From IMG/VR virus record IMGVR_UViG_3300045988_049076: a DNA stretch of 30,642 nucleotides; one strand, 5' to 3'. Within the stretch, counting starts at the first letter, position 1. The number at the start of each line of letters is the position of its first letter. The notes beneath the pieces were generated by a model. That model saw only the letters and a program-made list of their open reading frames with translations, ran no database searches and was not told where the DNA came from. The position numbers and the translations under genes were made by a program. The stretch is from a virus. Of this stretch, positions 9,356 through 30,459 are shown in pieces.

Positions 9356-9384
9356 AAAGCCCCGGTTGTGTGCCGGGGCTTTTT
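9356..9384. terminator. Bidirectional intrinsic terminator between convergent genes
   Basis: AAAGCCCCGG (9356-9365) pairs with CCGGGGCTTT (9373-9382) around a 7-nt loop. There is an A-run on one side and a T-run on the other. Confidence 0.8.
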
Positions 9385-9399
9385 CGTATCGTTTTTGGG

Positions 9400-9747
9400 T
9401 TAGAGTGGGCAGATGCGGTCGCGGAGTTCGTCGGGGAGGCTTGGTTTTGGGTGGTGTGTGAGGAATTCCTTGTCTTCGATGATTTCGCAGAATTGGGCGA
9501 GCCAGTGGCCTAGGCTGCGGATGTAGCCGGTTTCCATGTCGTTGATGTGTTGGAGTTCGTCGCGGCTTTCGATGAGTTTGTCTATTTTCTGGTCTTGGGC
9601 GTCGATTTGTTTTTTGAGTTCGCCTTGGGCTTCGACGAGGTGTTGGTAGGCGGTGGTGAGGTTGTCGCGTCGTGTGGTGGCGTATGTGATGGCTCCGCCT
9701 AGTGCTATTCCTAGGAGTCCGATGAGCGGGGATATTAGTTCAGTCAT
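9400..9747 (-). CDS. Membrane-anchored coiled-coil protein of unknown function (reverse-oriented insert between tail and lysis genes)
   Basis: 115 aa. The N-terminal hydrophobic helix ELISPLIGLLGIALGGAITYATT is followed by a heptad-like charged region (QGELKKQIDAQDQKIDKLIESRDELQ). Codon style matches the other minus-strand genes. Confidence 0.6.
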   Translation of the reverse strand: MTELISPLIGLLGIALGGAITYATTRRDNLTTAYQHLVEAQGELKKQIDAQDQKIDKLIESRDELQHINDMETGYIRSLGHWLAQFCEIIEDKEFLTHHPKPSLPDELRDRICPL

Positions 9748-9788
9748 AAGACTAAGTCTATCTTATGCGGTTTTGGTATGCTGGTCAT

Positions 9789-9938
9789 ATGAGTCAGGAA
9801 TCTATCGAAAATATTGTGTTGTTCATCTTGTCGGCGTTTCTCGTGGGGATCATGGTGGCGGCGGGTTTCCTGCTTGTTACCGGGATTCCGGCTTTTGCTC
9901 GTTTTCTTTTTACTGTCTGGTATGTTTTGATTGTCTGA
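9789..9938 (+). CDS. Small two-helix membrane protein (holin-like), not in the supplied ORF track (<60 aa)
   Basis: My own translation gives MSQESIENIVLFILSAFLVGIMVAAGFLLVTGIPAFARFLFTVWYVLIV, with stop TGA at 9936-9938, 11 nt before the endolysin ATG. The RBS is weak. Confidence 0.4.
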   Translation: MSQESIENIVLFILSAFLVGIMVAAGFLLVTGIPAFARFLFTVWYVLIV

Positions 9939-9949
9939 AAGGAGACAAA

Positions 9950-10792
9950 ATGTCATATGAATATATTACTAAGTATGATAGTCCGAATTATACGAGCGGA
10001 CGCCCGTATGGGATCAAGGCTATTGTGATTCACTGGTGGGGTGATCCGAATACTCACCCGACGTTCGAGGGTGTGATTAATACCTTGTGTAGCCCGTCTC
10101 GTGGTGCTTCCGCGCATTACGTGGTCGAGGCCGGTCGCGTGGCTTGTATCGTGGATCCGGATGATCGTGCGTGGCATGCCGGTGACGGCGTGGGTGTTCA
10201 CTCCAAGGGTAATGACATGGGTATCGGCATCGAATGCAATCCCCGTCAGTCCGATGGTGATTATCTGACGGTCGCGCAGTTGATTCGTGATTTGCGTGCC
10301 GAGTATGGTGATCTGCCGTTGATTCGGCATCGTGACTGTTATAACACGCAGTGTCCGGGCTCGTATGATTTGGATCGTTTGGATCGTTTGTCTCGTGGTT
10401 TGGTGGCTCCGTCTACTCCGGTGCCTCATCAGCCGGCCACGTCCAATGTGACGAAGCTTGCGGTGGATGGGTCTTGGGGCCCGGCGACGATGCGTAGGGC
10501 TCAGGAGGTTGTCGGCACTACGGTTGATGGTGTCATGTCCGGTCAGATTCGTTGTCTCGAGAATCAGAACATCGCCTGTTTGGAGGAGGGTACTTCGGGT
10601 AGTGACTGGGTTGAGTGGATGTCTCACCGTTTCGGGATTACCGATCGGCCGCGTAATGCTGGTCCGGAGTTCATTCACCGGTTCCTCATGGAGATGAACG
10701 GGTATGCTGGTGATGGGATGATCGGTCCGGTTCCGTCCCCGGCCGTCATGGAGTTCCAGAAGCGGCTGAATGATGGTCGTATCTTTAACTGA
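9950..10792 (+). CDS. Endolysin: N-acetylmuramoyl-L-alanine amidase (Amidase_2/PGRP type) with C-terminal peptidoglycan-binding repeats
   Basis: ATG at 9950 follows AAAGGAG. Motifs present are IVIHWWG, ASAHYVV, DRAWHAGD and HRDCYNTQCPG. The C-terminus has LAVDGSWGPATMRRAQ and GDGMIGP...EFQKRL, which resemble PG_binding_1. The upstream part of ORF 9653..10792 is rejected. Confidence 0.85.
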   Translation: MSYEYITKYDSPNYTSGRPYGIKAIVIHWWGDPNTHPTFEGVINTLCSPSRGASAHYVVEAGRVACIVDPDDRAWHAGDGVGVHSKGNDMGIGIECNPRQSDGDYLTVAQLIRDLRAEYGDLPLIRHRDCYNTQCPGSYDLDRLDRLSRGLVAPSTPVPHQPATSNVTKLAVDGSWGPATMRRAQEVVGTTVDGVMSGQIRCLENQNIACLEEGTSGSDWVEWMSHRFGITDRPRNAGPEFIHRFLMEMNGYAGDGMIGPVPSPAVMEFQKRLNDGRIFN

Positions 10793-10804
10793 TTGAAAGG
10801 ATTG

Positions 10805-11110
10805 ATGTTTATGGTTAAGCATGCAGTGTTGGCTGATGACGTGTTGACTGGTGAGCCTACTTCGGAGACCATGATCACGAATGAGTGTGCCGATGGTTCG
10901 GATAATTACGTGCCGGCTTTCGATGCTGAGACTCGTCGTTGGGCGTATTTGGTATCCGGCCTGGTTGGTATCGCCGGTGCTGTGGCCAGTCTGGTGAGTG
11001 CGGTTCCGGGTGTCCCGTCGTGGGTTGCGGTCGTTGGTGGCGCGTGTGCGCTGGTTGGTTCCGGTGTGGCTGGCTTGTTCGGCGTGCATTATGCTGGTGT
11101 GAGCCGCTGA
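10805..11110 (+). CDS. Holin candidate
   Basis: ATG at 10805 follows AAAGGA. The C-terminal half has two hydrophobic helices (WAYLVSGLVGIAGAVASLVSAV and WVAVVGGACALVGSGVAGLFGV). The gene lies directly after the endolysin gene. Confidence 0.6.
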   Translation: MFMVKHAVLADDVLTGEPTSETMITNECADGSDNYVPAFDAETRRWAYLVSGLVGIAGAVASLVSAVPGVPSWVAVVGGACALVGSGVAGLFGVHYAGVSR

Positions 11111-16099: not shown

Positions 16100-16536
16100 T
16101 TGTTTTCCTTTGCTTCTTTTTCGGCTTTGGCTTTGGCTCGTCGGATTCGGGCTCGTTCGGACTGTTTCCGGGTGTATTCGGCTTTTTGTTCCGGGGTCAT
16201 CGCGTGGTATCTGGCTTTCTGTCTGGCGAGCATTTCCTCCCGCCATTCATTGTCGGTGTGGTAGCGTTCCCTGGCTGCCTCTCTTTTTTTCTTGAGGGTT
16301 TTTGGTTTGCTATGGTATTCCTTTTGTTTTGCCGCGTATTGTTCGGCGTGTTCTTCCCTCCATTTCCTGTTGGCTTCGGCGCGTTCCTCCTTGTGACGGT
16401 AATAGTATCGGTAGTCGCTGATCTTGCGCCGTTCCTCGGCTGATGGTTGACTGTTGCGCATCTCGTTGATCCAGTCCATCATGTGTTGGTCGTTGAAGTC
16501 GATTTCGACCGGTTCCTGTGTTTTCTTTCTTCCCAT
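16096..16536 (-). CDS. Highly charged Arg/Lys/Glu-rich helical repeat protein
   Basis: 146 aa. It shows recurring R/K-x-x-Y/W-R/H-type segments (RKISDYRYYYRHKEE, ANRKWREEHAEQ, KQKEYHSK, ARERYHTDNEW, QKARYHAM, KAEYTRKQ). No family assigned. Confidence 0.5.
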   Translation of the reverse strand: MGRKKTQEPVEIDFNDQHMMDWINEMRNSQPSAEERRKISDYRYYYRHKEERAEANRKWREEHAEQYAAKQKEYHSKPKTLKKKREAARERYHTDNEWREEMLARQKARYHAMTPEQKAEYTRKQSERARIRRAKAKAEKEAKENK

Positions 16537-19870: not shown

Positions 19871-20116
19871 TCAGGCCTCCTCGATGAACGAGCTGAAGAG
19901 ACTACGATTGTAGAGAATGCCTCCGAGCTTCGAAAGAGCGGTCACCGGATTATCGTAATGCTTGCATGCGGTATCCCACGCTTCGAGTACTTCCTCGTCG
20001 CCGAACTTTGCGCACAGGCCGGAGAAGAACTTCCTCGACTTCTGCTCGCCTTCCCCACTGAAGCGGACGCCGTACCGTTCGACGAGGGTATCGTTGATTC
20101 GATCGTAAACGCTCAT
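19871..20116 (-). CDS. Hypothetical protein, first gene of the leftward early block
   Basis: 81-aa ORF. AAAGGAAC RBS precedes the ATG at 20116. Confidence 0.6.
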   Translation of the reverse strand: MSVYDRINDTLVERYGVRFSGEGEQKSRKFFSGLCAKFGDEEVLEAWDTACKHYDNPVTALSKLGGILYNRSLFSSFIEEA

Positions 20117-20150
20117 TGCTGTGTTCCTTTCTTACTGTTGCGTTACCTCA

Positions 20151-20159
20151 ATCATACCA
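20151..20159 (-). promoter_or_regulatory. Extended -10 (TGGTATGAT) of the leftward early promoter
   Basis: The reverse complement of 20151-20159 is TGGTATGAT, about 35 nt upstream of the ATG at 20116. Confidence 0.45.
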
Positions 20160-20201
20160 CGCAACATCAAAAACCACCAGAGACAACACTCATCAACCAC
20201 A

Positions 20202-20237
20202 CCCCGTACGTCGCATCCCGTATCCCGCGTCCCGTAT
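20202..20237. repeat. Three direct repeats (C/T)CCCGTA(C/T) phased at 14 bp
   Basis: CCCCGTAC at 20202-20209, TCCCGTAT at 20216-20223 and TCCCGTAT at 20230-20237. The third copy overlaps a TATACT -10-like hexamer (20235-20240, + strand). Confidence 0.7.
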
Positions 20238-20246
20238 ACTGTCCCT

Positions 20247-20706
20247 TCACCTCTCACCCTCACCCAACCCCGCCATGGAGTGTTTCTTGAGGGAGTGAGC
20301 GAGCTCTGGTAGAGAGAGTAAGCCTTAAGAGCTGAAGTTTTAAGTGCTTCAGATTAAGGCTTCATGACGGTTTCCGTCGGTCGTTCGGTCGCACGGCGTC
20401 GGTCATAAGAGTGATGCATTACTACCACTGATGCGGCATACCCCAGCAGATCGCGCTACATCTTTGATGTGATGGTGTCGGCACCCCGGTTATTCCACCA
20501 TCGTCTGTTGGGTCGGTTGAACTTCGCACCTCTAACGTGAGTATCAACGAACTGTTAGTCGTCGTCCCATTGACCCAGAGCAAGGGCTGTAGCCGGGGAG
20601 TTGTCGTGCCTCCGCACCCAAGCATGTCCTTTCTGTGGTAGGCTTGGATTTGGACTTTACTCGCCCCATTATAGCACATCGTGCCGTGATGGGGCTTTTC
20701 TTTTAC
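20247..20706 (+). ncRNA. Candidate ~460-nt structured non-coding RNA (family unknown; 5' end and strand inferred)
   Basis: There is no credible ORF. Several nested helices can be drawn by hand and the locus ends in a + strand intrinsic terminator (20663-20706). See findings. Confidence 0.35.
20663..20706 (+). terminator. Strand-specific intrinsic terminator with no upstream protein gene
   Basis: GCCCCAT (20663-20669) pairs with ATGGGGC (20689-20695), with an inner GCAC/GTGC pairing, followed by CTTTTCTTTT. The opposite strand has no T-run. Confidence 0.65.
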
Positions 20707-20893
20707 GTCATCAACTCATCCACCGCATTCCTCCCCCACGCTTTTCACCGCACATACCTCCAGAACGCACGTAAAGGCCCCTCAGACCGATTTTCCCGTC
20801 AAACACAATAACTCGTCAGGACCAACTCACGATAGCCCGTCAGAAAGGCCTTACGCACGAAAACGACGTTCCAGCCCAAAACAGCACCTAAAA

Positions 20894-21113
20894 AGCATCG
20901 AAACCACCAAGCCGTGAGAGAACCACCCAAGCCAGACACGGATCGACTCCTCTCCTTGCCCATTCAGGCCGAGCATCGAGACCAAGATCCGAAGGGCAGC
21001 ATCGAGACCAGGACGGCATCCACCTCGATGCCCAGAGCCATGGAGAGAGCACGGAAAGCATCGAGAAGGCCCCATGGCTCCATGCCACAGACATCGAAGC
21101 ATCCAAGGCTTGG
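20894..21113. repeat. Iteron-like cluster of (A)GCATCGA(G/A)A(C/A)CA repeats with interleaved inverted repeats; candidate origin or protein-binding array
   Basis: Direct copies lie at 20894-20906, 20972-20984, 20998-21010 (the latter two identical 13-mers) and 21057-21067. An inverted copy CTCGATGC is at 21024-21031 and a partial copy at 21092-21099. The inverted repeats are GGCATC/GATGCC (21015-21020/21027-21032), GAGCCATGG/CCATGGCTC (21035-21043/21072-21080) and CCAAG-G-CTTGG (21103-21113). Confidence 0.6.
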
Positions 21114-21120
21114 TTTGGAA

Positions 21121-21240
21121 GACTGGTTTCGTTTCTCTCTCTTTGGAAAGAAAGATTTATCTTTCTTTCTCTCTCTTTAGATTATCTACTAGAGTATCCA
21201 TCTATCTTATAGGGATCTATATTATAGAGTTGCAAATTCT
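21121..21240. other. AT-rich island (about 32% GC) with polypyrimidine direct repeats, a perfect 11-2-11 palindrome and two 13-mer repeats
   Basis: TTTCTCTCTCTTT occurs at 21132-21144 and 21166-21178. GAAAGAAAGAT-TT-ATCTTTCTTTC spans 21146-21169. ATCTAT(C/A)TTATAG occurs at 21200-21212 and 21215-21227. I counted 38 G+C in 120 nt. Confidence 0.7.
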
Positions 21241-21291
21241 GCAGCTTAGCTTGCTGCAGATTCTGCAGCTACCCACTGCACATTCTGCAGC
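21236..21291. repeat. Three exact ATTCTGCAGC repeats (spacing 24 and 22 bp) with extra CTGCAG palindromes
   Basis: Copies lie at 21236-21245, 21260-21269 and 21282-21291. CTGCAGC/GCTGCAG form an inverted pair at 21239-21245/21253-21259. TTGCAA lies at 21230-21235 just upstream. Confidence 0.8.
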
Positions 21292-21394
21292 GGGCGCTGC
21301 AATGGTTGCGGGAGGTGAGAACTCGTACGGGGGGATTGTTCGGGGCTCACATGGGGGGTATATGCCACTCGTTGAACACGAACCATCGGCAATA

Positions 21395-21443
21395 CCAAAA
21401 GGCCCCGGCCAGTCCGGGATTCCTCCCAAGACCGACCGGGGCC
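21395..21443 (-). terminator. Probable terminator after the DUF1064 gene
   Basis: GGCCCCGG (21401-21408) pairs with CCGGGGCC (21436-21443) across a structured 27-nt interior. On the minus strand it is followed by TTTTGG. Confidence 0.5.
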
Positions 21444-21461
21444 ATGCCCGCTCCCAAGTCG

Positions 21462-21797
21462 TCACGTCTCCTTGATGACCTTGCCGTACCGTCGTGCGAA
21501 GAGCTTGCTCTTGAGCCGGTACACGTCAGTCATCATGCCCTTGACATCTTCGACGACCTCCCGGCCATTCTCTACGTAGACGAAGTCGGCCACGTAGAAG
21601 ACAGGCCGGTAATGCCTGCCATCCACGTCGAAGGCCGGTACGAGCTCGTAACGCACCTGGCGTCGAAGATCTTCGATGATTCCGTCTTCCTCCATGCTCT
21701 TCAGGACGAGATACCGGTCAGCCTCACGCCTCGAATCGAAGGTGATGCCATCTACCGTTGTCTTTTTCGCATGGTATTTGCTCCGTCCGCTCCACAT
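21462..21797 (-). CDS. DUF1064-family protein (putative nuclease / Holliday junction resolvase-like)
   Basis: 111 aa. SKYHAKKTTVDGITFDSRREADRYLVL...YVADFVYVENGREVVEDVKG fits the KY.akk..vdG..FdSk.Ea ... aDF.y ... veDvKG pattern. Confidence 0.7.
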   Translation of the reverse strand: MWSGRSKYHAKKTTVDGITFDSRREADRYLVLKSMEEDGIIEDLRRQVRYELVPAFDVDGRHYRPVFYVADFVYVENGREVVEDVKGMMTDVYRLKSKLFARRYGKVIKET

Positions 21798-21800
21798 GGC

Positions 21801-22211
21801 TTACCTCCCGGTGCTTCCGAAGCCGTTGTCGCCACGCTCGGACGGGTTGAACGCAGACACCTGCTCCAATGGTTCGCAGACCACCGGAATCACAACCAGC
21901 TGCGTGACTTTGTCCCCGGCCTCGAACTCATGGTCTTCGCCGCCATGGTTGTAGAGCTTGACCACGATGCTTCCGGTATAACCCTCATCGATGAGCCCGG
22001 CGCTCGTGATGTCGTGCTTGACGTTGAGTCCGCTCTTGCTGACGAGCAGTCCGGCGCATCCACACGGCAATGCCACGTGCACGCCAGTATCGACTATCGC
22101 GTTCCCGTACGCCGGCACCGTCACGGCCTTTGGTGTACGCAGATCAAGTCCCGCGTCGGTCTCGTGGCCTCGTGACGGCATGTACGCTCCGTTGTCCAGC
22201 ATGATTTCCAT
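21801..22211 (-). CDS. dut: dUTP diphosphatase
   Basis: 136 aa with the dUTPase motifs DAGLDL, SKSGL, GLIDEGYTGSI and RGDNGFGSTGR. AAAGGAGG RBS. Confidence 0.9.
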   Translation of the reverse strand: MEIMLDNGAYMPSRGHETDAGLDLRTPKAVTVPAYGNAIVDTGVHVALPCGCAGLLVSKSGLNVKHDITSAGLIDEGYTGSIVVKLYNHGGEDHEFEAGDKVTQLVVIPVVCEPLEQVSAFNPSERGDNGFGSTGR

Positions 22212-22297
22212 TTAGCGCCTCCTTTTGTGGTAGTATTATGAGCGTCGGGGCGTTTTATTGGTTTCCCCGCCCCGGCTACTTTCCTTTGAGTAATAAT

Positions 22298-22335
22298 AAT
22301 CCCCGCCTCCGGTCGAAAGACCAGGGGCGGGGATT
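22298..22335. terminator. Strong hairpin terminator with GAAA tetraloop between the poly-Asn gene and dut
   Basis: AATCCCCGCC (22298-22307) pairs with GGCGGGGATT (22326-22335), with an inner GGTC-GAAA-GACC. T-rich sequence follows on both strands. Confidence 0.75.
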
Positions 22336-22354
22336 GTCTTATCTTGAGTCAGTG

Positions 22355-22591
<237 letters not shown>

Positions 22592-22647
22592 TTTTATTTC
22601 CTTTCTAGGTTGTAGGATTTGCATGTCCTACGTTGTTTGATACACAC

Positions 22648-22678
22648 ACAATATCACGATCACTCTCACGACACGCCG
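22648..22678 (-). promoter_or_regulatory. Promoter-like element with exact 10-mer for the poly-Asn gene
   Basis: The reverse complement of 22648-22656 is TGATATTGT. CGACACGCCG lies at 22669-22678, 15 nt upstream. A half-site GCACGCCGA lies at 22698-22706. Confidence 0.5.
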
Positions 22679-22706
22679 AACGGACAACAGCCCATCCGCA
22701 CGCCGA

Positions 22707-22735
22707 TTGCAATACAGCGAAGACGGCGCTATAGT
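22707..22735 (+). promoter_or_regulatory. Near-consensus sigma-70-type promoter P1 (TTGCAA-N17-TATAGT)
   Basis: -35 TTGCAA at 22707-22712, an exactly 17-nt spacer, and -10 TATAGT at 22730-22735. Confidence 0.65.
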
Positions 22736-22741
22736 GAGTCT

Positions 22742-22820
22742 TGCACTTCATTGTGTACTCTTGACAGCTGACTGCTCAACCGGGTTCTTCTCCCCCTCTC
22801 CCCCGGTTGAGCATTTTTTT
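22742..22820 (+). ncRNA. Candidate ~80-nt small RNA or terminated leader transcript from P1
   Basis: The inferred start is ~7 nt after the -10. There is no start codon. The terminator hairpin 22773-22813 has a 17-nt all-pyrimidine loop TTCTTCTCCCCCTCTCC and is followed by T7. Confidence 0.5.
22773..22820 (+). terminator. Strong intrinsic terminator
   Basis: TGCTCAACCGGG (22773-22784) pairs with CCCGGTTGAGCA (22802-22813), a 12-bp perfect stem, followed by TTTTTTT (22814-22820). Confidence 0.85.
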
Positions 22821-22877
22821 ATATCTGAAACACCGCCTTATGTCATCGTTACCAGCAACACACCGACGCGAAACAGG

Positions 22878-22906
22878 TTGCAAGAATACTCGACGCGTTA
22901 TATCAT
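22878..22906 (+). promoter_or_regulatory. Promoter P2 (TTGCAA-N17-TATCAT) positioned for a leaderless transcript
   Basis: -35 at 22878-22883, a 17-nt spacer, and -10 at 22901-22906. The ATG at 22914 begins 8 nt after the -10. Confidence 0.55.
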
Positions 22907-22913
22907 AAGACCT

Positions 22914-23093
22914 ATGAACGCTAAAAATTACACCGCAACAGTCCCCGAATACGCCCACCGCTGGAAGCTCAACATTCAAACAGTCCGCCGCTTCATCCGC
23001 GAAGGACGACTCCACGCAGTCAAGGTCGGCCGCTGCTACTTCCTCGACCCGGACGTAATCCCAACCAAGGACAACACCGAAGCCGACAACTAA
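22914..23093 (+). CDS. HTH_17 / excisionase-AlpA-like small DNA-binding protein
   Basis: 59 aa. VPEYAHRWKLNIQTVRRFIREGRLHAVKVGRCYFLDPD is the typical MerR-superfamily excisionase-type HTH. The upstream part of ORF 22707..23093 covers the promoter and terminator and is rejected. Confidence 0.65.
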   Translation: MNAKNYTATVPEYAHRWKLNIQTVRRFIREGRLHAVKVGRCYFLDPDVIPTKDNTEADN

Positions 23094-23110
23094 AACACAA
23101 TCCACCACAC

Positions 23111-23139
23111 GAGGGGTAGGCAGTTCCCGCCTACCCCTC
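23111..23139 (+). other. Perfect 11-bp hairpin between the HTH_17 gene and the antirepressor gene (no U-tract)
   Basis: GAGGGGTAGGC (23111-23121) pairs with GCCTACCCCTC (23129-23139). Confidence 0.6.
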
Positions 23140-23178
23140 TACGAATAAGCCATAACCGACAAAAGAAAAGGCAATCAA

Positions 23179-23961
23179 ATGAATACCGAAATCCAAACAT
23201 TCAACTTCAACACCGCACCATTGCGCACCCTGACCGACAAGGCCGGTAACCCGTGGTTCGTACTCAAGGATTGCATGAGCATCCTTAGCCTCGGTAATCC
23301 AACTGAGACTGTCAAAATGTTTGATGATGATGAGTTCAGTACTACTGAAGTCATCGACTCGATTGGTCGTCGGCAGCAGGCGTACATCATATCCGAGTCC
23401 GGCTTCTACCGTCTCGTGATGAAGTCTCGTAAGCCAGAAGCCAAGGAATTCCAGCGCTGGGTGACCCACGAAGTGCTCCCAACCATTCGCAAGCATGGCG
23501 CGTACATGACCCAGCAGACCCTCGACAAAGCCCTCACCAGCCCCGACTTCCTCATCCAACTCGCAACCAAGCTGAAGGAAGAACAGGAAAAAGTCAAGGC
23601 ATTGGAACCGAAAGCCAAAGCCCTCGACGCTTTCACCGACGTGGAAGACCGACTGCTCGTCCGCGACGCCGCCAAGATCCTATCCAACTCCGGCACCATC
23701 ATCAACGAAAAACAACTGCGCGAATGGATGGCAGCCAACGACTGGATCTACAAGCACAATGGATCATGGCACGCCACCGCAAAACACTGCACAGCCGGAC
23801 ACCTCGTAATGGTCATGTCCACAAAGCACGGCACCAAAGCGGACGGCACGAAATTCGCTTTCCCACCCACCGTACGAATCACGAGAAAAGGCTTGGTGCT
23901 GCTCCACACGCGTCTCGGCGAAACCCGTCTGGCCAACGCCCTCGAAACAACCACCCACTGA
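23179..23961 (+). CDS. Antirepressor: Bro-N domain plus KilAC/ANT C-terminal domain
   Basis: 260 aa. The N-terminal FNFNTAPLRTLTDKAGNPWFVLKDCMSILSL...ISESGFYRLVMKSRKPEAKEFQRWVTHEVLPTIRKHGAY is the Bro-N pattern. The C-terminal LLVRDAAKIL...EKQLREWM...GWI is like phage antirepressor KilAC. Confidence 0.8.
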   Translation: MNTEIQTFNFNTAPLRTLTDKAGNPWFVLKDCMSILSLGNPTETVKMFDDDEFSTTEVIDSIGRRQQAYIISESGFYRLVMKSRKPEAKEFQRWVTHEVLPTIRKHGAYMTQQTLDKALTSPDFLIQLATKLKEEQEKVKALEPKAKALDAFTDVEDRLLVRDAAKILSNSGTIINEKQLREWMAANDWIYKHNGSWHATAKHCTAGHLVMVMSTKHGTKADGTKFAFPPTVRITRKGLVLLHTRLGETRLANALETTTH

Positions 23962-26331: not shown

Positions 26332-28455
26332 GTGATAGAACATTTCAAACCGAAACGAGGCAAATTGACCATTCTCAGCAACCTACGCTCAGGCTTCGCG
26401 AGCGCTTTCGGCCGCTCAAACGCCCCACACACGTCCCCAACGCCGGCAGGCGGCAACACATGGCAGCAAATGGGCGGTAACACCATCCCTTTCCACGACA
26501 CGTACGACAACGTTTTTCCCTACGTGAACGCCATCGCCCAGCGTTTCAGCACCGTCATCCCCTACGCCGTCGCCTCGGACGGCCGTCGTCTCGACCCAGC
26601 ACCGCCCGCACTAAGCGCCCTATACGCCCCTAACGACACGTACAGTTGCCTTGAATTCCTTAAACTCATCGCGTCAGGCATACTCACCCAGTCACACGTG
26701 GACATCCTTATATGGACCACCAACGGCCCCGGCGGCAACATCACCCCAGACAACATCACCGGATACACCCTCCTACCGTCGAACAGCCGCGTCTACAACG
26801 ACACCCGCTCCGACTGGTACCACCGCGTAACCATGGACCTCGGCGACGGAACCCGCCAATACGAATTCACCCGCAACGAAACCATCTCGCTTTCGTACAG
26901 CCGCCACCCCGACGACCCCACGCGAGGCATCAGCCCCGCCATGACCATCAAGAAATGGGCCAACGTCGACGACATGATCGCCGACTACGAACGCGGCTTC
27001 TTCGGTAACAACGCAGTACCCGCCGGCATGCTCGGCATCGTCTCCGAAAACGCCGAAGACTTCCAACGCAACAGAGCACGCCTCGAAGAAACTTTCCGCG
27101 GAGCCGGCAACAACAACGGCATCGCCTACAACATGATCCCCGTCGACCCACTGACCCACAAGCCCAGCCAGACCAGCAAACTAGTATGGGTCCCATTCCA
27201 GAACTCCAACGACTCACTGGACCTACAGACGGTCAACGGCGTCGTCAACAACCGTCTGGCCAACGCGCTCGCCGTCCCCGACATCATCCGAGGCATCGAC
27301 AACGGCCAAACCTACTCCAACGCCGAAATGGCCGAACGCGCATTCATCGAAAACACCCTCAAACCACTCTGCATGACAGTATGGGACAAATGGCAATTCG
27401 AACTCGACCGCATCACCGGCGGCCTCGGCTACGGCATCACTTTCACACTCGACCTCCCCGCCCAGACCGAAGTCGAAAAAATACAAGCGGAAACCCAACA
27501 AATCCGCATCAATAACCTCATCCAACTCGTCAACATGGGAGCATCGGTCGAAACCGCAGCCGAAGCACTCGGCCTCCCCGACGCATACCGGCGGCTCGAC
27601 CTCCACCCATCCACCCACGACACACCACTCCTCCCCTCCGGAAGAAACACCACAAAAGCCTCCAAAACCATCCACGACACGCCAACCGAACCACACCTCC
27701 TGACCTCCACCCGCGCCTATGTAAACCGCATCATCCAACTCACCAGACGCTCGCAGTCAGGACTCCGAGACGACCTCAAAACCATCGGCCAACAGTGGGT
27801 CAACGACGTGGAAAACGACCTCATCACCCACCTCACCAACTACGCCCGCAAAACCGGCCTCAAACTCGAACAAGTCATCACCGCATGGGCCGAAACCCAC
27901 CCAAACAACCCAATCGCAGTCGAAGTGCAAGGCTACACGCAACCAGACTGGAAAAACCTCTACGACTGGGCCAAACTCCCACCAAACGTGAAGACGGCAT
28001 ACATCGACCACTTGGAATCCATCGCCGACACGACCTCCAAGACCGTCACCGCGAAAACCCTCGACATCCTTACCAAGGCAGACAGTGAACAATGGGACGC
28101 AAGACGTTTGCACGACGAGCTCGCACGCCTCGGCAACGAGCACGCCGAACTCATCGCCCGCTGCGAAACCGTCCAAGCCCAAAGACTCGGCAGCTTGTAC
28201 AGCGCACGCAACCTCAGCGAAACACTAGGAGTCCGACTGCAAAAGGTATGGCGTACCAGCGGAGACGCGACCACATGCGACTTCTGCAAACACATGGAAG
28301 GCACCACCATCGGCCTCGACAGCTCCTACCTGGACACCGGAGCAAACATCGAAATCGGTGACCACACCTACGTCAACAACTTCGAAAACATGACCACGCC
28401 AAACGGGCATCCGAACTGCCGATGCTACGAAGACTACGAAGTAGTGGAGAATTAA
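26332..28455 (+). CDS. Portal protein fused to a MuF / SPP1 gp7-like head morphogenesis domain
   Basis: 707 aa with a GTG start (uncertain). The N-terminal ~430 aa are portal-like by position and size. The C-terminal ...VWRTSGDATTCDFCKHMEGT...NGHPNCRCYEDYEVV carries the MuF-family HPNCRC signature. Confidence 0.7.
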   Translation: MIEHFKPKRGKLTILSNLRSGFASAFGRSNAPHTSPTPAGGNTWQQMGGNTIPFHDTYDNVFPYVNAIAQRFSTVIPYAVASDGRRLDPAPPALSALYAPNDTYSCLEFLKLIASGILTQSHVDILIWTTNGPGGNITPDNITGYTLLPSNSRVYNDTRSDWYHRVTMDLGDGTRQYEFTRNETISLSYSRHPDDPTRGISPAMTIKKWANVDDMIADYERGFFGNNAVPAGMLGIVSENAEDFQRNRARLEETFRGAGNNNGIAYNMIPVDPLTHKPSQTSKLVWVPFQNSNDSLDLQTVNGVVNNRLANALAVPDIIRGIDNGQTYSNAEMAERAFIENTLKPLCMTVWDKWQFELDRITGGLGYGITFTLDLPAQTEVEKIQAETQQIRINNLIQLVNMGASVETAAEALGLPDAYRRLDLHPSTHDTPLLPSGRNTTKASKTIHDTPTEPHLLTSTRAYVNRIIQLTRRSQSGLRDDLKTIGQQWVNDVENDLITHLTNYARKTGLKLEQVITAWAETHPNNPIAVEVQGYTQPDWKNLYDWAKLPPNVKTAYIDHLESIADTTSKTVTAKTLDILTKADSEQWDARRLHDELARLGNEHAELIARCETVQAQRLGSLYSARNLSETLGVRLQKVWRTSGDATTCDFCKHMEGTTIGLDSSYLDTGANIEIGDHTYVNNFENMTTPNGHPNCRCYEDYEVVEN

Positions 28456-28458
28456 CCC

Positions 28459-28641
28459 ATGACATACGACATCCACTGCAAGAAATGCGGACGGTACCTC
28501 GGCTCATGCGAGCACGATACCGACGTGACACTCAAATGTCCGAACTGCAGAAGCCTATTGGAATATCACATCATGCTATTATGGGGACTTGAACACAAGC
28601 CCCCAAAGGACGTTCACGACAACATCACTACCACCGAATGA
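28459..28641 (+). CDS. Com-like zinc-ribbon protein
   Basis: 60 aa. IHCKKCGRYLGSCEHDTDVTLKCPNCRSLLEYHI has two CxxC pairs spaced as in phage Mu Com. Confidence 0.55.
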   Translation: MTYDIHCKKCGRYLGSCEHDTDVTLKCPNCRSLLEYHIMLLWGLEHKPPKDVHDNITTTE

Positions 28642-28650
28642 AAGGGTGAC

Positions 28651-30459
28651 ATGACCACTCGAAAGAGTTTCACCCACACCGGCGGTACCACTGAAACCGA
28701 AGGCCGAACCCTCACATTCCTCGCCAACTCAGGCGAAGTAATGTGCGGCGGACTCACCGTAGACCTCGACACGCTCAAAGCCCCACTCACAGACGGGACA
28801 CTGAAACTCGTGTCAGACCTCGATGATTCCGACAGGCTCTCACTCCCCCTCCTCATCGACCACGTGCCATCAGTCGAGGCCCAAGCCGGCACAATCACCC
28901 GCCTCTGGATGACCGACGCCGGACTCATGGCCGAAGCAAGACTCAGCGAAGTCGACAACGGGGAACGCGTCCGCCAGCTCGCAGCCGACGGGTGCCTCAC
29001 CAACAGTTTCAGCATCACCGTCGAATTCAACAGACAGCCCGGCAAGGACGGCATCATCCACGACAGCGAACTGGTAGAAATCAGCGTCGTCTACCGTGGA
29101 GCCGACCCCCGAGCCTCATTCACCTCAATCAACAACCGAAAAGGAGACACCATGGACAACGAACTCATGACCAAGCTGGCCCGCACCGTCGCCCAGTTCA
29201 AGCTCGACCCGGACGAGGCCGCAAACCTCACCTCGTCCGTAACCGACATCATGACCGACGCGGTAGCCGACATCAAGGACGCCATCAACGACCAGACCAA
29301 CACTCAGAACGCTCAGGAACAGGCCGCACCGGAAGAACCCACCCAGTCCGCCAACAAGCGTCCACTCGTCATCATCAACAAGAGCAACCGAGCAGCCAAG
29401 CAGTCCAGCGTCGCCTCTTTCTCCCACACTCGTGAGACGTGGCTCGACTCCCCGGACGCCATGGCCGCTTTCGAACGCACCCTCATCGACAACGACAACA
29501 AGGGCGTCGAAGCATTCCACAAGGAGTGGGCCGACACCGTGTCCCGCAACATGGCCGACACCGCCTCCTTTGGCGTAGACAAGGCCAACGTGGACAAGTT
29601 CATCCCGACCGAAGCCATCACCACCATCAGCGACGCGCTCAACACTCGCGGTTCCGGCTTGTGGAACCTCTTCCGCAAGACCGGCATGGACCGCCTCACC
29701 ATCGGTGGCAACATTCTCGGCCTGACCGAAGAGACCCGCGCCCACGGCTATCCGGTCGCCTCCTACGGCACCAAGAAGAAGGAACAGACCCCGAGCTTCG
29801 TGAAGCGTGAACTGACCGCGGACTACACGTACAAGTACATCACCCTCAACAAGGGTGACATCCGTCGTACGCAGAGGCCGGGCGCACTGCTCCGTTACAT
29901 TCTCTCCGAACTGCCGAACTACATCGTCCAGACCATCGAACGTCAGGTCGTGCTCGGCGGCTACGAAGACATGGCTCACTTCCGCTCCATCACCACCGAC
30001 GCGGCCGACTCCAAGTCGGAGTGGGCCGGAAACAAGTTCGCCCGCTCCTACACGCTCGGCGAGGAAACCCCGCTCATGGGCTTCGTGAAAGCCTCCCACA
30101 TGGTCCGCGCACAGGGCAACAAGGTCCTCGTCTGCAATGCCGACACGGTAGCCGACCTGCTCATGAGCGCCGACGCGAACGGCAACAGCTTTATCGCCCT
30201 CGGCGGTGACGACACGCTCGCCCGCGCTCTCGGCGTCTCCCAGATCATCACCCCGGAATGGTGGACCGCGGAAGACGACAAGACGGTGGCCGGCGTGGTC
30301 ATGTCCGCTTCCCACTACGCGCTCGTCGGCGACACTTCCGTCGAATCGTTCACGAACTTCGCCCTCCAGACCAACACCAACGAATACCTCCAGGAGATTT
30401 ACGCGGGTGGCGGTCTGGACGCGGAGAAGTCCGCAGTGGTCATCAAGCCGAAGGCCTGA
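28651..30459 (+). CDS. Prohead protease (HK97/S78-like) - scaffold-like linker - major capsid protein fusion
   Basis: 602 aa. The N-terminal ~165 aa (LPLLIDH...GTITRLWMTDAGLMAEARL...NSFSITVEF...LVEISVVYRGADPRA) fit the prohead protease pattern. A coiled-coil acidic linker follows, and the C-terminal ~300 aa have the size and position of a capsid protein. Confidence 0.7.
   Translation: MTTRKSFTHTGGTTETEGRTLTFLANSGEVMCGGLTVDLDTLKAPLTDGTLKLVSDLDDSDRLSLPLLIDHVPSVEAQAGTITRLWMTDAGLMAEARLSEVDNGERVRQLAADGCLTNSFSITVEFNRQPGKDGIIHDSELVEISVVYRGADPRASFTSINNRKGDTMDNELMTKLARTVAQFKLDPDEAANLTSSVTDIMTDAVADIKDAINDQTNTQNAQEQAAPEEPTQSANKRPLVIINKSNRAAKQSSVASFSHTRETWLDSPDAMAAFERTLIDNDNKGVEAFHKEWADTVSRNMADTASFGVDKANVDKFIPTEAITTISDALNTRGSGLWNLFRKTGMDRLTIGGNILGLTEETRAHGYPVASYGTKKKEQTPSFVKRELTADYTYKYITLNKGDIRRTQRPGALLRYILSELPNYIVQTIERQVVLGGYEDMAHFRSITTDAADSKSEWAGNKFARSYTLGEETPLMGFVKASHMVRAQGNKVLVCNADTVADLLMSADANGNSFIALGGDDTLARALGVSQIITPEWWTAEDDKTVAGVVMSASHYALVGDTSVESFTNFALQTNTNEYLQEIYAGGGLDAEKSAVVIKPKA

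Follow-up and report, generated by a model that had tools for sequence, protein, structure and literature searches.

A conserved promoter–hairpin–terminator unit with a pyrimidine loop in a phage control region: a candidate stand-alone small RNA gene

What use a phage could have for an RNA of some 80 nucleotides (nt) that seems to encode nothing is the question raised by positions 22707–22820 of IMG/VR virus record IMGVR_UViG_3300045988_049076. The whole stretch of DNA that was analysed, 30,642 nt long, is referred to here as the window; at these positions a promoter (P1) is followed by a hairpin with an unusually long loop and a run of seven Ts. A sequence-only reading had proposed that this element is either a small RNA (sRNA) or a terminated leader, and the places it gave for P1, the 12-bp hairpin, the 17-nt pyrimidine loop and the T7 tract all prove correct on direct reading of the sequence. 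The parts of the element are as follows.

22707–22735, + strand: P1, with −35 TTGCAA (22707–22712), a 17-nt spacer and −10 TATAGT (22730–22735), from promoter scan and conservation.
22742–22820, + strand: predicted non-coding RNA of ~79 nt, its 5′ end inferred from the position of the −10 and its 3′ end lying in the U-tract.
22746–22759, + strand: conserved 5′ RNA segment CTTCATTGTGTACT, with the family consensus YTCATYGYGTAY.
22773–22784, + strand: hairpin 5′ arm TGCTCAACCGGG of a perfect 12-bp stem, starting 37 bases past P1.
22785–22801, + strand: all-pyrimidine loop TTCTTCTCCCCCTCTCC, 17 nt with zero purines.
22802–22813, + strand: hairpin 3′ arm CCCGGTTGAGCA, the perfect partner of the 5′ arm.
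22814–22820, + strand: T7 tract of an intrinsic terminator, by direct sequence reading.

Our answer, which we hold tentatively, is that the element may be a stand-alone phage sRNA gene whose exposed C/U loop is the functional part and base-pairs with purine-rich RNA, with targets likely in the host. Host RNA polymerase would start at P1 and stop ~79 nt later at a strong intrinsic terminator, whose hairpin would double as the likely carrier of the effector. Since the loop, 13–20 nt long in the family, is nearly free of purines, it would not fold on itself and would stay exposed, and its C/U tracts could pair directly with G-rich or purine-rich single-stranded RNA, for example ribosome-binding regions, with no need of a chaperone. 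In a second role, the terminator would shield a downstream promoter (P2) from transcription that starts at P1. The analysis establishes the anatomy of the unit, its conservation, the covariation of the stem, the constraint on loop composition and the dispensability of the module; production of the RNA, action in trans, pairing with RNA and targets in the host are inferred.

The hairpin reads as a terminator on the + strand only, the minus-strand side being without a T-run. It is the minimum-free-energy RNA fold of an 81-nt stretch, at −26.2 kcal/mol compared with −12.6 ± 2.5 kcal/mol for shuffled sequences (z = −5.5; 0 of 200 as good), and is the single stable hairpin in the window RNA. The stem of 12 bp, with 8 G-C pairs, followed by T7 is the GC-rich stem and U-tract of a canonical intrinsic terminator, but the short loop of such terminators (3–8 nt) is not found here, the loop being 17 nt in the window and 13–20 nt family-wide. 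Consequently, the hairpin is absent from a consensus terminator scan, which admits loops of 3–8 nt. Our own scan, which admits loops up to 25 nt, reveals three places on the window's + strand where a T-run follows a hairpin, and only the one at 22773–22813 has a pyrimidine loop; neither of the others, at 9359–9379 (loop 5 nt) and 20663–20695 (loop 13 nt), has a loop that is even rich in pyrimidines. The window loop contains 10 Cs, including a run of five. A riboswitch-type attenuator was considered and rejected: inspection of the family folds by eye showed no conserved second partner for the terminator arm.

The RNA region also appears to be non-coding. It had been described as free of start codons, which holds for ATG; GTG and TTG triplets do occur in it, none of them with a Shine-Dalgarno sequence. 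Two open reading frames (ORFs) that overlap the element, an in-frame one at 22707–23093 and one on the minus strand at 22605–22751, do not stay open in relatives, where 1-nt indels and loop lengths indivisible by three break the frame, and coding potential was rejected. No tRNA or tmRNA was found.

Is the unit real? The promoter scan returned 3 sites where 3.1 are expected in 6 kb, and because the match of P1 is by itself not above chance, the case for this promoter rests on conservation. The small helix-turn-helix (HTH) protein encoded just downstream recovered 34 related loci from IMG/VR, nearly all on ~30-kb contigs. The whole element (P1, hairpin and T-run) is present in 31 of the 33 loci that have readable upstream sequence. 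Among 32 phages, the −35 of P1 never changes and the −10 (TATAnT) hardly does, in contrast to a variable spacer. Conservation, expressed as the majority-base fraction, with stem and hexamer statistics taken across 32 sequences, is highest at the promoter hexamers, the stems and the T-run, and lowest in the loop and the spacers:

P1 −35 (TTGCAA): 0.97
P1 −10 (TATAnT): 0.86
P1 spacer: 0.76
RNA 5′ segment, 22746–22759: 0.81
Stem arms: 0.90
Loop: 0.54
T-run: 0.95
P2 −10: 0.97

The stem is maintained by covariation. Across the same sequences, 94% of cells are paired and 5 of the 12 pairs show compensatory changes, such as U-A to C-G in 10 sequences, compared with 21–46% of cells paired in slid controls in which the partner was shifted by 1–3 columns. 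A search of IMG/VR with the hairpin pattern gave 18 matches, all on contigs already recovered through the HTH gene. The pattern occurs once per genome and, within IMG/VR, is confined to one phage family, and a mobile or repeated element was rejected. Rfam holds no family that matches the element, whether searched with the whole window at gathering thresholds, with 20000–23300 at E ≤ 5 or with the 131-nt element alone at E ≤ 10, nor one that matches any of 10 diverse relatives at E ≤ 1; the NsiR1 match of the element alone (E = 0.8) was discarded as mere resemblance between terminator hairpins. Comparative sequence analysis shows that the unit of P1, RNA and terminator is real and conserved. 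The sRNA half of the sequence-only reading gains from these data: promoter, covarying stem and T-run are kept as a unit, the unit is lost as a whole in two relatives, and the loop stays pyrimidine while its sequence drifts.

This last property sets the element apart. The 29 distinct loops of the family are 13–20 nt long and 92% pyrimidine (A 4.8%, G 3.1%), compared with 65% pyrimidine in the 5′ part of the RNA and 56% in the spacer downstream of the terminator (Fisher p = 8e-32 and 2e-53, respectively, against the loop). The loop is therefore least conserved in sequence, yet tightly held in composition. A is the second commonest base on the strand and would likewise leave the loop unstructured, so its exclusion points to selection for pyrimidines as such. 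Each genome has one terminator hairpin with a pyrimidine loop, and the other terminator-like hairpins there have ordinary loops. In addition, a further stretch of 6 or more consecutive pyrimidines is found 8–15 nt upstream of the hairpin in 19 of 32 members, for example CTTCTCCCCCT or CCTCTCTCTC; the window copy has no such second tract, and in relatives it sometimes lies within a hairpin loop.

We note two further points on loop sequence. Several loops, in the relatives L062, L064 and L070, are perfect mirror repeats, such as TTTCCCCGCCCCTTT and TTTCCCCACCCCTTT, which may be a by-product of a pattern of T-rich ends and C-rich centre, or may hint at triplex-type clamping of a purine strand. 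Mimicry of a CRISPR repeat was rejected by eye, the loop being far too long for one.

Does the loop have a partner within the phage? The search covered as much as 10 kb of phage sequence to either side of the HTH gene, depending on the length of the contig. The sense strands of each phage were scanned for duplexes with its own loop, and the best sites were mapped to window coordinates; for 12 recurrent sites, the pairing energy of the phage's own loop was then compared with that of loops from other phages in a permutation test. The recurrent matches are merely the G-richest sense sites. They include the start region of the DUF1064 gene (21797), a hairpin at 22297, G-rich tracts at 20250 and 20730 near a putative origin, hairpins at 23114 and 24605, and sites at 16237 and 16353. 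A 13-bp match of one relative's loop (L078) to GGAGGCAUGGAAA (~14975) was rejected: it lies inside a coding region, is identical in phages with unrelated loops and shows no covariation. For the conserved 5′ segment at 22746–22759, matches to its complement with at most 3 mismatches number 5 against 1.9 expected, a marginal excess that 4 of 100 shuffles reach, and all 5 were set aside as generic NNN-ATG-AAG start contexts.

One site within the phage had been singled out beforehand. The sequence-only reading had suggested that the loop holds antirepressor synthesis in check by pairing with GAGGGG in the hairpin at 23111–23139, in the manner of P1 c4 or P22 sar. P22 sar is a cis-antisense RNA to the start region of its antirepressor, and P1 c4 is complementary to defined sites within its own operon. 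Here, too, a small phage RNA would be encoded near an antirepressor gene, and GAGGGG is indeed present at 23111–23116, in the 5′ arm of that hairpin, and complementary to CCCCUC of the loop. The hairpin itself, of 11 bp, GC-rich and without a U-tract, lies between the HTH and antirepressor genes; its position and its G-rich 5′ arm, (A/G)AGGGG, are kept in relatives, and it ranks among the top 8 predicted sites in 6 of them. However, the complementarity amounts to 6 contiguous pairs that are buried in the 11-bp stem, and it shows no covariation, own and swapped loops pairing at −11.5 and −11.3 kcal/mol (p = 0.34, n = 23). The alternative target, the antirepressor start region, pairs at −2.7 kcal/mol only. 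In contrast to sar, moreover, the RNA and the antirepressor gene share a strand, with the RNA ~360 nt upstream, so that it cannot be cis-antisense to the gene. We consider control of the antirepressor by pairing with either site very improbable.

Several observations weigh against a pairing function for the loop more generally. Own and swapped loops pair alike at all 12 phage sites (permutation p = 0.14–0.86). Start regions of the phage itself are no better partners for the window loop than random sense sequence is (means of −5.9 and −4.9 kcal/mol). No part of the RNA is less conserved in sequence than the loop, whereas a seed with one fixed target would usually be kept, and the 5′ segment at 22746–22759 is conserved better (0.81 compared with 0.54); this segment could be a second functional site, or even the true one. 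Finally, a protein that binds pyrimidine tracts would account for the compositional constraint equally well.

The loop could in that case be a site or decoy for a protein that prefers C/U, such as Rho (with its YC-rich primary sites), a cold-shock protein, ribosomal protein S1, a KH-domain protein or a phage protein, and would act by titration or recruitment instead of pairing. Constraint on composition and length rather than on sequence (92% pyrimidine at a majority-base fraction of 0.54) is in line with this, as is the lack of a co-varying RNA target within the phage, and A is excluded as strongly as G, which is more than avoidance of structure demands. However, no candidate binding protein was found, the loop is short for a Rho site, and the known C-rich-loop sRNAs of Gram-positive bacteria act via base-pairing (PMC6486639). 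We therefore regard a protein-binding loop as rather unlikely and retain base-pairing as the favoured function. As no co-evolving site is found in the phage sequence examined, the targets of the RNA would probably be host transcripts.

Whether the unit gates the genes downstream of it depends on what lies between its terminator and the first of these genes. Two features are needed here.

22878–22906, + strand: P2, TTGCAA-17-TATCAT (TATAAT in most relatives), from promoter scan and conservation.
22698–22706, + strand: GCACGCCGA, a copy of the ACACGCCGA-type motif, abutting the −35 of P1.

P2 starts 58 bases past the T-run, and 7 nt separate the end of its −10 from the ATG at 22914, ahead of which no Shine-Dalgarno sequence was found; this spacing predicts a leaderless mRNA for the first rightward gene (HTH_17), a prediction that extends to all relatives. 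P2 is kept in every relative, including the two that are without the RNA module, and it, rather than P1, is the promoter for HTH_17 and for the rest of the rightward operon. The unit downstream had been called an antirepressor operon, a description that is too narrow: it runs from the HTH and antirepressor genes through SSB, terminase, portal, head and tail genes to the lysin.

In the two relatives without the module (L034/L072 and L038/L076), everything from the −10 of P1 through the −35 of P2 is gone, leaving a single promoter ahead of the HTH gene. At the L038 junction, the upstream flank matches the P1 flank of a close relative (L031), and the downstream part, including the −10, is P2-like. 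Recombination between the GGTTGCAA(CC) boxes at the −35 of P1 and of P2 would be expected to leave just such a junction. The two promoters have in common TTGCAA, the 17-nt spacer, the spacer end GACG.CG.TATA and an ACACRCCGA-type motif upstream of each, and are probably duplicates. Recombination between their −35 boxes would remove the module cleanly.

These findings bear on the second proposal of the sequence-only reading, a leader of the lambda PR′-6S-tR′ type in which transcripts from P1 would halt at the terminator until a phage antiterminator (Q) permits read-through into the late operon. Points of resemblance are a short RNA from a strong, near-consensus phage promoter, a strong intrinsic terminator close behind it, and packaging and structural genes downstream. 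Moreover, in Stx phages such a terminated leader upstream of the late genes is itself a regulatory sRNA, StxS (PMC7547250), and a Bifidobacterium phage described below has, at the equivalent position, non-coding sequence between a promoter and a terminator. Here, however, P2 follows the terminator, ahead of the first gene, and is kept in all relatives, and a first gene without a Shine-Dalgarno sequence would be poorly translated from a transcript that reads through from P1. Two natural genomes do without P1 and the terminator while keeping P2. No antiterminator family was found in Pfam and PHROG scans of ~40 ORFs, which left some small proteins without an assigned function, no Q gene or Q-binding site is present, and the upstream neighbour is a divergent operon (small membrane protein, dUTPase, DUF1064) in place of a Q gene; nor was a conserved alternative, antiterminator pairing seen by eye in the family folds. 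This phage also differs in having no integrase among the scanned ORFs and no prophage relatives. Since the module is cleanly lost in two relatives and the operon's own promoter lies behind it, a Q-type gate is quite improbable, and we take the module to be a dispensable stand-alone RNA gene.

The same observations raise the possibility that the unit is an insulator born of promoter duplication. P1 would then be a copy of P2, the hairpin would stop P1 from occluding P2, and the RNA would be a by-product without function in trans. The likeness of the two promoters, dispensability in two lineages and the lack of a target within the phage all fit. A pure terminator, however, would be expected to drift towards a short loop, and the 29 distinct loops have kept both their length and their pyrimidines. 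The 5′ RNA segment and the second pyrimidine tract are conserved too, and P1 is near-consensus in all 31 carriers. We consider an insulator without further function unlikely; were it one, the strict exclusion of purines from a long terminator loop would still need explaining.

An sRNA that pairs through its loop has precedents, and these lend our favoured reading its working model. The 6C sRNA of high-GC Gram-positive bacteria (B11/ncRv13660c) uses C-rich loops to pair with the G-rich ribosome-binding regions of many mRNAs, including dnaB, with no chaperone (PMC6486639). Its name refers to six conserved cytosines in the loops, of which there are two, each on its own stem, and neither Hfq nor ProQ is needed (Mai et al. 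2019, PMC6486639). Similarly to 6C, the phage element would be a small RNA in a high-GC Gram-positive setting. Most of the phage family has two C/U-rich tracts, the second of which only sometimes lies in a hairpin loop. Unlike 6C, it is encoded by a phage instead of a chromosome, its loop sequence is not conserved, and the window copy has one loop, which is mixed C/U instead of C-only and forms part of a terminator hairpin; the Rfam 6C model did not match it at any threshold used. Actinobacterial 6C is thus the closest working model, but the phage element is not a member of that family.

Firmicute C-rich (UCCC) sRNAs offer a second comparison. In RsaE/RoxS and in hairpins of Staphylococcus aureus RNAIII, including its terminator hairpin H14, loop motifs mimic the anti-Shine-Dalgarno sequence and block ribosome-binding sites, and the terminator hairpin loop of RNAIII is itself among the pairing sites. 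The phage element resembles these in having C-rich unpaired sequence in a hairpin loop, with a terminator hairpin as the possible pairing site, but it shares no sequence or covariance-model similarity with them, and its loop is much longer (13–20 nt) and U-rich.

The element would thus found a new family of phage sRNAs of a known kind. To our knowledge, phage regulatory RNAs are known mostly from temperate coliphages, with almost nothing for phages of Actinomycetota or for uncultivated phages. In this respect the element is a well-bounded candidate, with promoter, body, terminator, ~30 natural sequence variants and two natural deletion variants. If the pairing model is true, the chaperone-independent C-rich-loop mechanism of high-GC Gram-positives extends to a phage, and the element offers a handle for asking which host functions such phages reprogram. 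A bolder version, which we hold to be unlikely, is that the family, probably virulent and with Bifidobacterium-like hosts, carries in its central control region a functional mimic of host 6C-type C-rich-loop sRNAs that rewires translation of host genes with G-rich ribosome-binding sites (dnaB being one such gene for 6C), the loop diversifying between phage lineages so as to track host targets or evade host countermeasures.

The window behaves like a complete phage genome of ~30 kb. On the + strand, genes run from 22914 to the end of the window and then from position 1 to ~11100, encoding an HTH_17/excisionase-like protein, a Bro-N/KilAC antirepressor, SSB, small and large terminase subunits, portal, head and tail proteins and an Amidase_2 lysin. 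On the minus strand, genes run from 22591 down to ~11190, encoding a small Asn-rich membrane protein, a dUTPase, a DUF1064 protein, a replication initiator, a DnaC-like loader, Erf, an exonuclease and an XRE-type regulator. The interval between the two sets, 22592–22913, is therefore the single divergent control region of the phage, and the element sits in it between a leftward promoter (PL) and P2. At the far end of the rightward operon, the Amidase_2 lysin gene occupies 9653–10792 on the + strand, the 378-aa minus-strand ORF at 9953–11089 being spurious; the operon therefore continues past the terminator-like hairpin at 9359–9379.

The host was approached through the same genes. A scan of 185,579 bacterial and archaeal species genomes, one genome per species, revealed no close relative, the best match being 53% identity over part of the HTH protein in unrelated metagenome-assembled genomes. 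Together with the lack of an integrase among the scanned ORFs, this suggests that the phage is probably virulent. The terminase, portal, capsid, tape-measure and other tail proteins, as well as Erf and the exonuclease, are 32–52% identical to those of Bifidobacterium asteroides phage BlindBasel1. This resemblance points to a Bifidobacterium-like host in the Actinomycetota and fits the Gram-positive setting that had been assumed from the start.

BlindBasel1 (MT006235.1) is also informative at the control region itself. Its region at 28290–29100 has the same layout: a divergent promoter region is followed in turn by the promoter TTGCAT-17-TATCAT, non-coding sequence, a terminator of 12 bp with T7, another promoter and an HTH_17 ORF. 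The latter, on the minus strand within 28286–29100, is an unannotated ORF of 51 aa at 28441–28286 behind the non-coding unit. The unit itself differs in being ~490 nt long, with no credible ORF, instead of 80 nt, in having no detectable sequence similarity, and in a terminator loop of 7 nt that is not pyrimidine-only. The same layout in the same place suggests that this position is a conserved slot for a non-coding transcription unit, whose cargo seems to differ by phage.

Other features of the control region were noted along the way. Copies of the ACACGCCGA(AC) motif lie at 22671 (+), 22698 (+), 22858 (+; 11 nt before the P2 −35), 19574 (+), 13759 (−), 13789 (−) and 16351 (−), and adjoin promoter-like sites that include P1, P2 and PL. 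With at most 1 mismatch, ACACGCCGA has 35 matches compared with 20.3 ± 4.6 expected, and the motif is a candidate operator for a phage regulator. PL is predicted from an extended −10, TGATATTGT, at 22661–22653. A conserved hairpin at 22612–22631 (− strand) would lie in the 5′ leader of the leftward operon, just upstream of the ribosome-binding site, and relatives show the compensatory variants GTAGGA/TCCTAC, GCAGGA/TCCTGC and GTAGGT/CCCTAC. The first leftward gene, 22355–22591 (− strand), encodes a protein of 78 aa with a run of 13 Asn derived from an (AAC)n repeat, a C-terminal hydrophobic segment and a weak DUF4234 match.

Beyond the control region, the window contains a second candidate RNA. 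The stretch at 20290–20700 (+ strand) is a candidate for a structured non-coding RNA of ~400 nt that is conserved and ends in a terminator of its own (20663–20695 plus TTTTCTTTT); it is antisense to the leftward early operon and is found in about half of the relatives. Its consensus fold across 14 phages has 109 pairs with 97.7% of cells paired, compared with 33–51% in slid controls, and 15 pairs show compensatory changes (58 cells, compared with 19.3 ± 4.6 in shuffles). It matches no Rfam family and may be more novel than the pyrimidine-loop sRNA.

Next to it, a non-coding stretch at 20720–21110 is kept in ~25 relatives and contains 4–5 copies of GCATCGAGA(CCA) at ~20960–21100. These iteron-like copies lie beside initiator genes, which makes the stretch a candidate replication origin. 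Finally, a strong conserved terminator at 21403–21445 (− strand), with a stem of 13–18 bp in relatives followed by a T-run, stands right after the DUF1064 gene; the first three leftward genes consequently seem to make up a short immediate-early unit, closed off ahead of the non-coding block.

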